Shown in pieces: positions 7,043-43,197 of a stretch of 64,000 nucleotides of DNA (positions are counted from its first letter, which is position 1; each line of letters begins with the position of its first letter). The position numbers were made by a program, and so were the translations under genes. The stretch comes from a virus, in the IMG/VR virus record IMGVR_UViG_3300008267_000013, positions 23,793 through 87,792 of that record; one strand, written 5' to 3'. The notes beneath the pieces are model-generated. The model did no database searches. It was given only the letters and a program-made list of their open reading frames with translations, and was not told where the DNA came from.

Positions 7043-7352
7043 ATTGGTTACTATTTAAAGTATTACGAGGAATAAATATGAAACTTGTCATCAAAAATAG
7101 ATTAAATGAAAATATAACTCCACAAATGTTAGATAGTAGTAGTTTTAGAACTGCAATTACGAATAGTTTAAAACATATGAATAACAGCCAGGATGTTAAA
7201 CAAACAGGTTTAAACATTTTAGATAGTGAGGGAAGACCAACTATTAAGGGATATTATTTGTTTAGAGATGGCGATAATTTTTCAGTTTATCACCTCAGCG
7301 ATCCTTCAAAAAAGTTTCCAATACAAATAAGCGATTATATATAGGATAGTTA

Positions 7353-7691
7353 ATGTTAGAAACTAGACCATGGGGTTATTTCGTTGTTCTGGAGGATAGA
7401 GAAACCCACAAGCTTAAAAGAATAGTAGTCAATCCATCTGGTGCATTAAGCTATCAATCGCACAGCAAAAGGATGGAAGTTTGGACAATTATAAGCGGAG
7501 AGGGTACTTTTATATTAGATGGCATACCACAAATAGTTACAGCTGGTATGATCTGTAGGATTCCAAGAGGTTCTAAGCATAGAATGATAAACAAATCTGA
7601 TGTTCCCTTGGAATTCATAGAAGTTCAACTTGGTGAATATTTTGGGGAAGATGATATCGTAAGATATCAGGACGAATATAATAGAGTATAA
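7353..7691 (+). CDS. Cupin, type II mannose-6-phosphate isomerase C-terminal-like
   Basis: RPWG, LSYQSH...EVW, HR..N, FIEVQLGEYFGEDDIVRYQDEY. Confidence 0.88.
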   Translation: MLETRPWGYFVVLEDRETHKLKRIVVNPSGALSYQSHSKRMEVWTIISGEGTFILDGIPQIVTAGMICRIPRGSKHRMINKSDVPLEFIEVQLGEYFGEDDIVRYQDEYNRV

Positions 7692-39115: not shown

Positions 39116-39190
39116 TGGTGCTTTCGGGAAGAGTTGCACTTCCATCACGAACTTTACAAGAGTTGTATTTTGCTATTAAACTACGAAAGC
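39116..39190 (-). tRNA. tRNA-Thr(UGU)
   Basis: Cloverleaf GCTTTCG/CGAAAGC+ACCA; loop CTTGTAA; atypical T-loop TGCAACT. Confidence 0.8.
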
Positions 39191-39339: not shown

Positions 39340-39855
39340 CTATCTTTTCTTGCTCAGACGTTCTTTTTTCTTTTTTTCATTATTGGCAGATTTGCATAAT
39401 TCACACCTACATTTTCTATATTGATAGGTATTAGGTGTTCCGTGAACCCAAGTAGAGGGATCACTTGTTGTACCACCTCTGGTGGTTACTTGTTTTGTCT
39501 GTCCGTATTTTCCGGCACACTCTCTAGAACAGAATGGACCAGCTTTGCCCTTCTTAATGTTTCCTCTTACATCACGCGCTTCTCTTATAAATTCTTTTTC
39601 ACAAAGTGGACAAATATGTTTACTAAGTTCAGCAATAGGAGCGTGCATCCTACTATGTTCTTCTCTTGATAGTATCTCTAGGTTCTCTATCCTATTATCT
39701 AGTTTGTTTTCATTTAGATGATGCACAACTTCATCAGTAGTCAGTCTCCTACCAATATGTTGTTCCATAATCCAACGATGTTCTAGATAATATCTAGATT
39801 TACCATCTATCTTAACGCAAATATACTTGTAACCTTCTTTAGAAACGTGTGGCAT
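39340..39855 (-). CDS. HNH homing endonuclease
   Basis: EHRWIMEQHIGR...VVHHLNENKLDNRIENL plus C-terminal Zn motifs; AT-rich. Confidence 0.9.
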   Translation of the reverse strand: MPHVSKEGYKYICVKIDGKSRYYLEHRWIMEQHIGRRLTTDEVVHHLNENKLDNRIENLEILSREEHSRMHAPIAELSKHICPLCEKEFIREARDVRGNIKKGKAGPFCSRECAGKYGQTKQVTTRGGTTSDPSTWVHGTPNTYQYRKCRCELCKSANNEKKKKERLSKKR

Positions 39856-39924: not shown

Positions 39925-40221
39925 TGGTCCCAGCTGAGCGAGTCGAACGCTCAATCCCGTAAGGGCGGTTGATTTTCTTACCACTTCAGCTTTCGCTGCC
40001 ATCTTTCGATGTTTGTGGTCTGGACTATGCCTTCACCTTTTAATCTTTCGATCAGTCAGGTGGGTGCCGTCTAGTCTCTACACGTTCTAGATATTTCTAT
40101 CTAGCTTCGCTCGGCGTTGCCAGTTAAGGGTTCACCGAATTTGACACCATTCAGATAGAGGATTTCGCCTCTACTGCTCAATTAAATAAGTCAACTGTGT
40201 ATGCCATTCCACCAAGCTGGG
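39925..40221 (-). tRNA. tRNA-Leu(UAA) with group I intron
   Basis: Exons join as GTTGA-CTT|AAAA-TCAAC; long variable arm; ACCA end. Confidence 0.92.
39977..40187 (-). ncRNA. Group I intron (compact, IC3-like) in tRNA-Leu
   Basis: AAATTCGGTGAA, GTAGAGACTAGACGG, GGCATAGTCCA core; terminal G; P1 CTT/GAG. Confidence 0.9.
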
Positions 40222-40257
40222 TTAATCTTAGTTACTAATTTTCAAAGAAGTACTCAG

Positions 40258-40549
40258 TACGACCCCTGGGAATTGAACCCAGACTCTCTCGATTATCCTG
40301 CCACTATGGCTTTCGCCACCCTTTCGGTTTGTGGTCTGGACTATGCCTTCATCTTCGCCATTACGCGGTCAGACGGGTGATTATAGTCTCTGCACGTCCT
40401 GCTTTCGCAGTTTCGCTCAATGTTGGGACGGATAACTAATTGCAAGTATATCCAGACCGTTCGTTGAATTTACACCATTCAGTATAATATTTCTACTATA
40501 CTGCTCATATTTCTAAGTCGAGTGCTTTCACCAATTAAGCTAGGGTCGT
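40258..40549 (-). tRNA. tRNA-Ile(UAU) with group I intron; no encoded CCA
   Basis: Exons join as CTCGA-CTT|ATAA-TCGAG; acceptor ACGACCC/GGGTCGT. Confidence 0.82.
40297..40514 (-). ncRNA. Group I intron in tRNA-Ile
   Basis: GCAGAGACTATAA, GAAGGCATAGTCCAGACCACAAAC core; P1 CTT/GAG; P10 ATA/TAT. Confidence 0.9.
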
Positions 40550-40685
40550 ACTCAGTACTTCTCTTTCAACCTTACAAGAGGCAGTCTATCACACCTCCGT
40601 CACACTTTCAAGTTCTTTCTCAAACTTTCTTTTGATTCCCTGCCGGGGCAGAACTTCAACCACCAGCAGGGATCAACTTCAACCT

Positions 40686-40716
40686 ATCTTAGTGGCTATC
40701 GGGCGGGTTGTCAAGT
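40686..40716 (-). promoter_or_regulatory. Sigma70 promoter; direct repeat of 41484-41514
   Basis: TTGACA-ACCCGCCCGATAGCCAC-TAAGAT; points toward the tRNA cluster. Confidence 0.8.
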
Positions 40717-40847
40717 GATCGGACACAACGAACCCGGTTCGTATTGCTCACGCCGTCGTTGCGCGGGTTGCCGTAGCCGAAGTCCAAGCCCCTGCCATGC
40801 TCCACATCGGCCAGCCGCTCGATCTCGTCCAGTTGCTCGGGGGTCAT
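40689..40847 (-). CDS. Small ORF ending in a DGR variable-repeat-like Lcl tail
   Basis: MTPEQLDEIERL...DFGYGNPRNDGVSNTNRVRCVR. Confidence 0.6.
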   Translation of the reverse strand: MTPEQLDEIERLADVEHGRGLDFGYGNPRNDGVSNTNRVRCVRSLDNPPDSH

Positions 40848-41044
40848 TTCCACTCCGTAAGACCACGAATGGCGAAGAGCTTGTCGCACGCCGCCTTCCA
40901 GTCCATCTCTTTCCGCTCCAGCAGGAACTCAAGCCTCACGATCTCGGCGTTCGCTTGCCGCAGGGCTTTGATGAGCTTCATCGGGATACCGTTCGGGTCC
41001 GACGATGCCAGAAGCTCGTACTCGTTCAGTTGCTGTGGGGTCAT
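40844..41044 (-). CDS. Hypothetical protein
   Basis: MTPQQLNEYELL; GGAGG RBS; ATGA overlap. Confidence 0.65.
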   Translation of the reverse strand: MTPQQLNEYELLASSDPNGIPMKLIKALRQANAEIVRLEFLLERKEMDWKAACDKLFAIRGLTEWK

Positions 41045-41463
41045 GACTCACCTCCAACAGAACGGACACAACGGACCCGGCGCGTAATGCCCACGACGCT
41101 GCTGTACGTGTTGCCGTGGTTGAAGTACACGCTCCACGCGAGCGCTGTAAGGCCGGACACGGGAGACGACGACCAGAACCATTCACTGGGGCAGTCAGGA
41201 AACACGCTGCACGCTGGATTGTGTGTCTCGTAGTCCACAAGAGACAGAAGCTCCCTGACCGTGGGCAGCCGCCACCCATCACCCAGAGAAGCGGCATATG
41301 CCTTGGCCCCTTCCCAAGTGAACTCCCTATCCGGCACGTCCGCCTGCCACTCAAGATCACCCACCTTCACGGTGCGGATAGATGGTCTACTCTGTGCAAC
41401 CTCCATATCAGCAAGACGTTTTTCGAGCATGGCAACACGGGCAGATAAATCTTTAACAGTCAT
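41041..41463 (-). CDS. DUF1566/Lcl C-terminal domain protein (C-type-lectin-like DGR-target fold)
   Basis: WEGAKAYA, GWRLPTVRELLSL, FWSSS, AWSVYF..G, VRCVR. Confidence 0.9.
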   Translation of the reverse strand: MTVKDLSARVAMLEKRLADMEVAQSRPSIRTVKVGDLEWQADVPDREFTWEGAKAYAASLGDGWRLPTVRELLSLVDYETHNPACSVFPDCPSEWFWSSSPVSGLTALAWSVYFNHGNTYSSVVGITRRVRCVRSVGGES

Positions 41464-41483: not shown

Positions 41484-41514
41484 AATCTAGTCACTATCAG
41501 GCGGGTTGTCAAGT
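41484..41514 (-). promoter_or_regulatory. Sigma70 promoter; direct repeat of 40686-40716
   Basis: TTGACA-ACCCGCCTGATAGTGAC-TAGATT. Confidence 0.8.
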
Positions 41515-41768
41515 AGTTCTTCAGTTTCCTCGTCATAGAAACCGATGTTGCCGCCGGTCACATCGTTCAAGCCCTCTACGAATCCAGCAACGAAGTCCTC
41601 ACTGTAACCGTTCCTGCGGTACTCGTCAAGAAACAGATTCATCTTTTCAATGATGTGCTTGCGAGCAAAAGCCTGCCCAGCCTCATTGCCATGCAGGTTA
41701 TCCTCAACCATCTGCTCACTATACTCGGTCATCTCGCTGCTGTCAATCTCAGTCACGATGTTATCCAT
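41487..41768 (-). CDS. Acidic hypothetical protein
   Basis: MDNIVTEIDS...; GGAGG RBS. Confidence 0.65.
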   Translation of the reverse strand: MDNIVTEIDSSEMTEYSEQMVEDNLHGNEAGQAFARKHIIEKMNLFLDEYRRNGYSEDFVAGFVEGLNDVTGGNIGFYDEETEELLDNPPDSD

Positions 41769-42062
41769 CACTAGCCTCCGTTGGAAAGTGGCATCCCATA
41801 TGCCAACACTCGCACTCACGTTCATGTTCCCACAGGCACCGTCGAGCCTGTTCAAAAGGTACAGGATCAATCGACACCATATGTGGATGCTCAGATGAAA
41901 TTACATCTCTACACTTGTCACAGAGCATTGGTTGGTGAGGATCACGCAGCATCTGGTCGCTACGGATCCGGCATCTACGGCAAGCCGGCAGCAACCCTTT
42001 CAAGTTTGTCACGGCAACCTGCACCGTTGATTCCCTAATCTTAGCCACTCTTCACCTTCCTG

Positions 42063-42394: not shown

Positions 42395-42440
42395 TTACTC
42401 GCGCTTCTTTAGGCCGTTCTTAAAAGTTGGGCGTTTCCAT
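42395..42440 (-). pseudogene. Displaced 3' remnant of gene 43199-44098
   Basis: Encodes KRPTFKNGLKKRE* versus ERPSYKNGLKKR* in the intact gene. Confidence 0.8.
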
Positions 42441-42471
42441 TTTTTTATACTATTTATTTTAGGAGATAAAA

Positions 42472-43197
42472 ATGACAGAAGAACAAAAAGCTTTAAAAAA
42501 AATAAAAGATAAGGAATATAGAGGTAAAAATAAAGATAAAGCAAAAGCTTGGAGGGAAGCTAATAAAGAGTACATTAAGGAATATAGAAAAAAATATTAT
42601 GAAGAAAATAAAGATGAATTATTAGAATATTATAAAAAACAGAGAGAAGAAAATCCTGGGGAGAATACTGAGCGCTGTAAAGAATATAGAAAAAATAACT
42701 TAGAAAAATTAAGAGGATACGATAGACAAAGAAGGAAGGAAGGGAAGAAAAAAGAATCCGATAAGAAATATCGCGATAAAAATAAAGATAAAGCTAAGGC
42801 ATATAAAAAAGAATATTCTAAAAAAAACAAAGATAAATTAAATGAATACAAAAAAGAATATTTGAAAGATAACCCAATGTATAGGACCCATAATCAATTT
42901 TCAAATGCTATACGAGATCATTTAAAAAAACTTTCAATTAATAAAACACGCAATTGGGAAGAATTAGTTGGTTATACCTTAGAAGATCTTATGAAGCACC
43001 TTGAATCGCTTTTCAAAGAAGGCATGACTTGGGATAACTATGGCAGTTATTGGCACATTGACCACGTTCGTCCCAAGTCATGGTTCATCTTTGAATCAGT
43101 CGAAGATCAAGCGTTCAAAGACTGCTGGGCATTGTCCAATCTTCAACCTTTGGAGGCTAGTCTCAATTGCTCTAAAGGTAACAGATACGAAGGTTAG
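42472..43197 (+). CDS. HNH endonuclease with Lys-rich helical repeats
   Basis: GMTWDNYGSYWHIDHVRP...NLQPLEASLNCSKGN; AT-rich insert in the GC-rich island. Confidence 0.9.
   Translation: MTEEQKALKKIKDKEYRGKNKDKAKAWREANKEYIKEYRKKYYEENKDELLEYYKKQREENPGENTERCKEYRKNNLEKLRGYDRQRRKEGKKKESDKKYRDKNKDKAKAYKKEYSKKNKDKLNEYKKEYLKDNPMYRTHNQFSNAIRDHLKKLSINKTRNWEELVGYTLEDLMKHLESLFKEGMTWDNYGSYWHIDHVRPKSWFIFESVEDQAFKDCWALSNLQPLEASLNCSKGNRYEG

Follow-up and report, generated by a model that had tools for sequence, protein, structure and literature searches.

[quoted passage not shown] 2018, PMC5758913). The stretch that is mutagenized in a DGR target is bounded on its 3' side by the IMH, and on its 5' side in a homology-dependent manner (PMC5758913). 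The avd, template repeat (TR) and brt components have been found experimentally to be able to act in trans, Avd is not universal among DGRs, and the non-adjacent targets of phage-associated DGRs lie nearly all within 50 kb of the reverse transcriptase (RT) (PMC5758913). The targets of viral DGRs are mostly tail proteins (Roux et al. 2021, PMC8144416). Since DGR surveys begin from the RT, targets that have lost their writer, or that never travelled with it, go uncounted. The phage locus described below may hold such a target. The overall explanation that we consider likely is a DGR-written target gene, a second copy of the variable region that is a relic, and a writer that lies off the contig.

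Positive controls came from the loci of more distant DUF1566 relatives (33-46% identity), of which 144 were fetched. A DGR-type RT (IGNLSSQ followed by Y/FVDD) occurs in 16 of these 144 loci, and the 14 that were examined for repeats contain one to three VRs and a TR, with the RT just downstream of the lectin gene or genes. Across the 26 TR-VR pairs listed, TR adenines take 84-95% of the mismatches, and comparisons of VR with VR display mixed first- and second-position differences, like those between the two copies described below. Thirteen loci (L010, L011, L014, L016, L018, L019, L020, L041, L045, L054, L097, L118 and L126) are canonical DGR loci with two or three target VRs each, usually in tandem. 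In these 13 the RT has a stop-to-stop frame with the start of the TR at or within its 5' end, and the ...CAGT(C/G)AGT end is common to VR and TR apart from a single C/G.

The window, that is, the whole stretch of 64,000 nucleotides that was analysed, makes up the final 64 kb of an IMG/VR record of 87,792 bp, which CheckV estimates to be 43% complete. Phage genes on this contig include a DnaE-type polymerase, GroEL and PhoH. The polymerase is less than 30% identical to that of every cultured phage, and neither a homologue of the target gene nor a near DNA match was found in GenBank phages. The target gene (Table 1; gene call P0001, a 100% match) starts at an ATG at 41463 preceded by a GGGAGG Shine-Dalgarno sequence, and its stop codon overlaps the start of ORF2 (ATGA). 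Its Lcl_C/DUF1566 domain matches the PF07603 profile with an E value of 4.6e-21 and 75.7 bits (cut-off 34.9). The AF2 model of the protein places a helix at residues 3-25; its mean pLDDT is 63, and across residues 92-128 the value drops below 50. The best PDB matches of this model in Foldseek are all C-type lectin domains, the neck plus CRD of surfactant protein D among them, at E values that are non-significant (0.075 or above); a PDB sequence search with the target gave nothing significant. ORF2 has no Pfam match and is a paralogue of the protein P0122 (39% identity over 49 residues).

Table 1. Positions, in window coordinates, of the target gene, the two variable-region copies and the flanking elements
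Feature	Coordinates	Strand	Basis or remark
Target gene, 140 aa: N-terminal helix and Lcl_C/DUF1566 lectin-like domain	41041..41463	-	PF07603
Variable region A, codons 93-134	41062..41187	-	Family column spectra and L030 codon alignment
Variable region A, hypervariable core, codons 105-128	41080-41151	-	
Variable region A, conserved R-V-R-C-V-R end, IMH-like	41062-41079	-	
ORF2, 66 aa, helical, translationally coupled to target	40844..41044	-	P0124 77% identical
ORF3, 52 aa, chimeric, gene call P0121	40689..40847	-	ATG at 40847 overlaps ORF2 stop
ORF3 N-terminus, 5' fragment of a P0122-like gene, 24 codons	40776..40847	-	BLASTP 23/24
Variable region B, probable remnant: last 19 codons of the VR of a second DUF1566 allele	40719..40775	-	
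Upstream resident gene, 127 aa	41487..41870	-	Weak Pfam T7-like_Y65 match
Promoter-like site, upstream side of cassette: TTGACA, 17 nt, TAGATT	41484..41512	-	10/12 consensus matches
Promoter-like site, copy 2, downstream edge of cassette: TTGACA, 17 nt, TAAGAT	40686..40714	-	

The target gene, ORF2 and ORF3 form a cassette: an accessory island of high GC content with a copy of the promoter-like site on either side. GC content is 57% in the target gene and 60% in ORF2 and ORF3, against 45-48% in the flanks and 39% in the window as a whole. The promoter-like 19-mer occurs twice in the window, both occurrences bracketing the cassette, where the chance expectation is 0. Its upstream copy lies partly within the resident gene, at the 3' end, where it encodes the D-N-P-P-D-S-D tail, and its downstream copy encodes the tail of ORF3. 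The window has a collinear counterpart in a second locus, L030 (4.75 kb, 51% GC), which contains orthologues of a 299-aa gene, of the upstream resident gene (54% by tblastx), of the target (72% by tblastx) and of small genes beyond; as in the window, its upstream gene lies 5' of the DUF1566 gene. The resident protein ends E-E-L-L-D-N-P-P-D-S-D in the window (41487-41870) and E-S-T-E-S-V-D-S-T-E in L030 (2086-2391), a difference which suggests that the promoter-like element has overwritten the end of the resident gene.

Two group I intron matches (Rfam) lie on the minus strand directly 3' of the cassette, at 39997-40198 (51.4 bits, above the gathering score) and at 40315-40524 (34.7 bits, E 2e-6). 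By eye, tRNA-like exon halves can be recognized for the second of these near 40245-40314 and 40525-40565, with no ARAGORN call. A free-standing HNH_3 endonuclease gene (39340-39855, minus strand; Pfam 5e-13) is located between the intron-bearing tRNA region and a tRNA-Thr (39116-39190); the HNH gene of L030 is placed differently, between the upstream gene and the lectin gene. On the other side, an AT-rich patch with strong purine skew (42400-43000, 25-29% GC) encodes a Lys/Glu-rich ORF of 241 aa (42472-43197) on the plus strand, opposite to its neighbours.

The preliminary description of this DNA had noticed that the end of the Lcl_C gene (41139-41062, minus strand; copy A) and the end of a small ORF (40796-40719; copy B) can be aligned without gaps, and that over 20 codons they show 18 differences, none of them at a third position. 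The two stretches lie 340 bases apart. Our recount gives the same figures (11, 7 and 0 at codon positions 1, 2 and 3), and the next eight codons show ordinary divergence (1, 1 and 4). In the part that is unambiguously variable region, 14 codons long, there are 12 differences (6, 6 and 0), and all non-variable bases are identical in the two copies. Mutagenesis ends at the R-V-R-C-V-R segment (41079-41062), from which the third-position differences between A and B begin; for a downstream inverted repeat, only a weak, 5-bp hairpin-like match was seen. Among the 12 differing sites, adenine is found in copy B at six, in copy A at three and in neither at three. Since both copies have other bases at many of these sites, neither can be the template, as had been proposed. 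The accompanying proposal of a single template behind both copies is borne out by the imprint that they have in common, with template adenines at the variable sites.

Much the same imprint can be read from the homologues of the target. Searched against 5.8 billion proteins, the target has 180 homologues at E <=1e-10, and column statistics were taken from the 76 that are at least 55% identical to the protein of the window. The scaffold (about residues 29-104) is nearly invariant across the aligned homologues, and the tail follows the pattern S-G-x-T-x-x-A-W-x-V-x-F-x-x-G-x-x-x-x-x-x-V-x-x-x-x-R-V-R-C-V-R. In the 12 most variable tip columns, all of the 908 residues belong to the 15 amino acids that can be reached from AAC through changes of adenine; K, E, Q, M and W, which make up 41% of residues in variable scaffold columns, are absent from these 908. 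Other columns have spectra of the same kind: column 123 contains G/D/V/A, as from GAC, column 125 contains S/G/R/C, as from AGC, and columns 106-107 contain T/S/A/P, as from ACN. Columns 93 and 94 contain S/C/R and E/D/A/G, as from AGT and GAA, which suggests that the written stretch may begin near codon 93. Tip and scaffold also behave differently in the six nearest relatives: in the scaffold, identity among them and with the protein of the window is 85-96%, yet in the tip 0-4 of the 12 variable residues are shared.

The codon comparison with L030 separates the history of the tip from that of the scaffold. Over the scaffold (codons 29-101, 71 codons) the window and L030 differ at 10 first, 8 second and 30 third positions, and over the VR (codons 102-134, 33 codons) at 13, 8 and 0. 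With 42% of scaffold third positions differing (30/71), the probability of finding none in 33 is, by our own arithmetic, ~1e-8. This suggests that a common template was used to write the tips of both orthologues at a time when their scaffolds had long been separate, and it is very probable that one template served copy A, copy B and L030. Ordinary third-position divergence in homologues, which the preliminary description had named as an observation against a DGR origin, is thus not seen between the VRs of the window and L030. On the right, the identity between the window and L030 reaches precisely to the end of R-V-R-C-V-R, which is the edge that homing would predict. It already begins near codon 83, 5' of the clearly mutated sites, so that recombination of the 3' segment of the gene may also have contributed. 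A more distant homologue, 59-64% identical to the target, is carried by the phage contig L002 (60% GC, 64.8 kb, 73% complete). Compared with the window, it differs at 10, 11 and 7 sites by codon position over the 33 VR codons, and at 36 third positions over 73 scaffold codons; the pattern points to a template for this tip that is related but diverged.

We regard the tip of the target as almost certainly DGR-written. The mechanism that we infer is mutagenic retrohoming, by which the last ~30-42 codons of the target would have been written: an RNA of the TR would be reverse-transcribed with random bases placed opposite template adenines, and the resulting cDNA would replace the VR up to the conserved 3' segment. 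In the protein sense, the template would read about W-N-V-N-F-N-N-G-N-T-N-N-N-D-V-S-N-T-N-R-V-R-C-V-R.

No component of such a writer is present on the contig. The preliminary description had reported that RT and TR are lacking locally, and this extends to the whole 87.8 kb: the PF00078 (RVT_1) profile found nothing, tblastn with 14 DGR RTs as queries yielded no match below E 0.1, the Avd profile PF05635 found nothing, and a degenerate 50-nt pattern allowing <=8 mismatches matched only the two VR copies. The A-rich template and RT/Avd locus that it had suggested looking for in the rest of the genome are therefore absent from this contig, the target being 22.9 kb from one end and 64.9 kb from the other. 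In IMG/VR, three patterns (the 50-nt degenerate pattern, a 28-nt 3' pattern and the 27-nt core of the inferred TR) matched either the VRs of L001 and L002 or nothing, and the 64.8-kb L002 record contains no RT. The degenerate pattern was unmatched in the five bacterial genomes behind loci L114, L118, L124, L126 and L144, and in a sample of 401 Burkholderiales genomes it gave one match, with 3 mismatches, which is not VR-like.

The relatives of the phage lack both the writer and the target. Neither an RT nor a DUF1566 gene occurs in any of 16 IMG/VR records with polymerases 52-77% identical to that of the contig, including records of 187,450 bp (100% complete) and 168,144 bp (92%). The protein search that was used does detect the lectin gene in G000 and G001, and the cassette is thus accessory to this phage lineage. 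An orthologue of the upstream gene, by which the empty site could be defined, was not found in five relatives. Among four myxobacterial or deltaproteobacterial MAGs that contain DUF1566 relatives, one has 14 RVT_1 matches, with no link to the phage. This 8.2-Mb genome also includes contig CAWDXG010000004.1 (locus L125), on which a DUF1566 gene with an end of the R-V-R-C-V-R type is frameshifted just before its tip (~7260-7610).

Where the writer resides is less certain than that it wrote. It may lie in the unsequenced 57% of the phage genome, a placement that we hold only tentatively. A doubtful reading is that a DGR on the host chromosome, on a prophage or on a co-infecting phage rewrites the target in trans, the target being in this reading a cytoplasmic, promoter-led lectin-fold binding protein and its phage a large one of lytic type. 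Writing in trans would explain why one identical template imprint is found in two phages whose scaffolds have diverged at 42% of third positions, and also why the RT is absent from the contig and from near-complete related genomes.

A somewhat unlikely alternative is that both tips are frozen, the cassette or its 3' segment having been captured by recombination from a GC-rich, DGR-carrying phage, with no rewriting at present. Three points argue for import: the island is GC-rich (57-60% in a window of 39%), the promoter-like 19-mer is duplicated at its bounds, and the identity with L030 sets in at codon 83, ahead of the mutated sites. Also in keeping with capture are the existence of L002, a phage contig of 60% GC with a homologue of the target, and the absence of both RT and gene from the 16 polymerase relatives, the most complete ones included. 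Two points argue instead for recent writing on the target itself. The comparisons of A with L030 and of A with B reveal no change outside adenine-derived sites, and the identity with L030 stops precisely at the conserved 3' end. Between A and L030, 21 inferred adenine-derived sites differ with no third-position change in 33 codons, in scaffolds that differ at 42%, so that the rewriting, or the import of rewritten DNA, must be much younger than the scaffold split. In addition, L002 has no RT on its 64.8 kb, and thus no DGR-bearing donor has been identified. Mixtures of these scenarios take up the likelihood that remains.

Copy B has a different history from copy A. Residues 1-24 of ORF3 are identical to residues 1-24 of P0122 at 23 of 24 positions, and the similarity ends there (BLASTP). 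Beyond residue 24, P0122 continues as a full-length paralogue of ORF2, which indicates that P0122 is the native form and ORF3 the chimera. P0122 is a protein of 103 aa that is present on three contigs, the longest of 89,309 bp; P0029, a DUF1566 relative, has the same contig count and the same longest contig, and no homologue of P0122 was found in IMG/VR. After the junction, ORF3 reads Y-G-N-P-R-N-D-G-V-S-N-T-N-R-V-R-C-V-R, followed by the tail S-L-D-N-P-P-D-S-H up to 40692. Copy B shares its type of tail with full-length relatives, namely P0004, P0006 and P0007, all of which finish in R-V-R-C-V-R-S-L-D-N-P-P-D-x-x. The match of the start of ORF3 to the unrelated P0122 leads us to consider copy B, with good confidence, a fusion relic.

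This has consequences for the alignment of the two copies. The leftmost 4-6 codons of copy B (R-G-L-D-F-G) are the 5' end of a different gene and not VR, so that 6 of the 18 differences originally counted fall in or beside non-VR DNA and are not evidence for a DGR. Where the family invariably has W110 and V112, ORF3 has R and L, which it owes to T-to-A and G-to-T substitutions of a kind foreign to DGRs. Positions 2 and 3 of the four codons to the left of the junction nevertheless match copy A in 4 of 4, beyond casual chance, which we attribute to the join having formed at pre-existing similarity. The zone of junction and microhomology, at about 40776-40784, is placed by protein identity only, and the patchy similarity at the join (x-GG, x-GC, x-TG, x-AC, TTC) probably guided the fusion.

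The fusion can be read directly from ORF3; the order of the events behind it is what we infer. The target gene would once have had a second allele or paralogue, of whose VR and tail the bases from 40775 to 40719 are left; a deletion or a cassette replacement would have fused these bases in frame to a neighbouring P0122-like gene, after its first 24 codons. The join may have taken place at codons 22-24 of the P0122-like gene, in a patch of chance similarity around GAC-TTC-GGC, and in the middle of the VR of the second allele. Either route, deletion or cassette replacement, would require two events. The earlier view that both targets are small proteins of an early island therefore stands for copy A, which belongs to a small, non-structural protein gene in a GC-rich island, and fails for copy B, which is a chimeric relic.

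It is improbable that copy B is instead a live second target, with ORF3 a genuine small protein whose tail is still being diversified. ORF3 is open, its ATG overlaps the stop of ORF2, a conserved 3' segment has been kept beside the VR and the non-variable bases are still those of copy A, as would be expected of a working target. With 52 residues, however, the protein has no lectin scaffold, and the changes at W110 and V112 are not of the adenine type. Moreover, among 5.8 billion proteins the architecture of ORF3 has no homologue, the sole hits being the gene call for ORF3 itself and P0122, which matches at the N-terminus.

A reading without any DGR, in which ordinary diversifying selection on binding residues combines with GC-biased codon use, is very improbable and close to refuted. 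The high GC3 of the island (0.61-0.78) does lift chance identity at third positions. However, when the block from copy A was compared with 150 in-frame, non-VR coding blocks of 14 codons from the same island, the third positions shared were 4.3 of 14 on average and 9 at most, never 14; the codon pattern between A and B is real, and GC3 bias does not explain it. The contrast with L030, where third positions differ at 0 of 33 VR codons and at 30 of 71 scaffold codons, points the same way, and selection alone would not exclude K, E, Q, M and W from the tip columns. The family columns, the third positions and the control blocks thus agree in reading the codon pattern as the imprint of DGR mutagenesis, as it had been read at first.

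A local template, in the form of either copy or of a hidden element, with a degenerate RT nearby, is already refuted for this contig: canonical relatives do have a TR and RT directly downstream of the last target, and copy B is more A-rich than A, but copy B has a base other than A at 6 of the 12 differing sites, where real TRs have A at 84-95%, what lies downstream of it is a promoter-like site, two group I introns and an HNH gene with no RT, and the profile and tblastn searches of the whole contig were empty.

DUF1566 proteins are already known as a class of DGR target; what is unusual here is the non-structural setting, the absence of a writer on 88 kb and the fusion relic. The target is found among small early-type genes and not in a tail module. 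Its imprint is readable from homologues alone, and a collinear relative dates the rewriting to a time after the scaffold split. If the writer is on another replicon, this would be a retroelement that edits a phage genome in which it is not contained; if the tips are frozen, DGR-made binding diversity would spread between phages as promoter-bounded cassettes. Either way, the fusion relic would be a record of cassette replacement or deletion in a hyperplastic region.

Among the systems already described, the targets of category 'd' are closest to this one: they also have a C-terminal VR on an Lcl_C/DUF1566 domain, an imprint of the AAC type and a conserved 3' end, and about half of them are, like this one, short proteins that contain only DUF1566. 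Unlike them, the target described here has no lipoprotein signal, and no cognate TR, RT or Avd was found for it. Their context is that of the cell surface or the tail fibre, whereas the context here is that of small promoter-led genes in a phage lineage of ~170-190 kb. The canonical DUF1566 cassettes of our control set (L010, L016, L018, L019, L054, L118 and L126) have a related lectin scaffold, and in them two or three VRs are derived from one TR, with VR-to-VR differences of the same kind as those between A and B. In these cassettes, however, the TR and RT are located 0.4-1.3 kb downstream of the last target, and on our contig there are none. Their VRs end in a motif of the V-R-A/P-V-R type and ours in R-V-R-C-V-R, at a protein identity of 33-46%.

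Non-adjacent or remote targets, such as those of the Treponema TvpA family and of phage-associated DGRs, resemble the present one in lying away from the RT. Unlike the non-adjacent phage targets, it has no RT in the 22.9 kb over which the contig extends on one side or in the 64.9 kb on the opposite side, and near-complete related genomes lack one as well. The DGR of BPP-1 (mtd, avd, TR, brt) has as its target a tail-fibre protein encoded beside the RT, whereas the target here is a 140-aa protein of a non-structural region, on a contig without RT. The mechanism that we propose for it is nevertheless like that of BPP-1, in that adenine-specific mutagenic retrohoming would diversify the C-terminal tip of a lectin fold.
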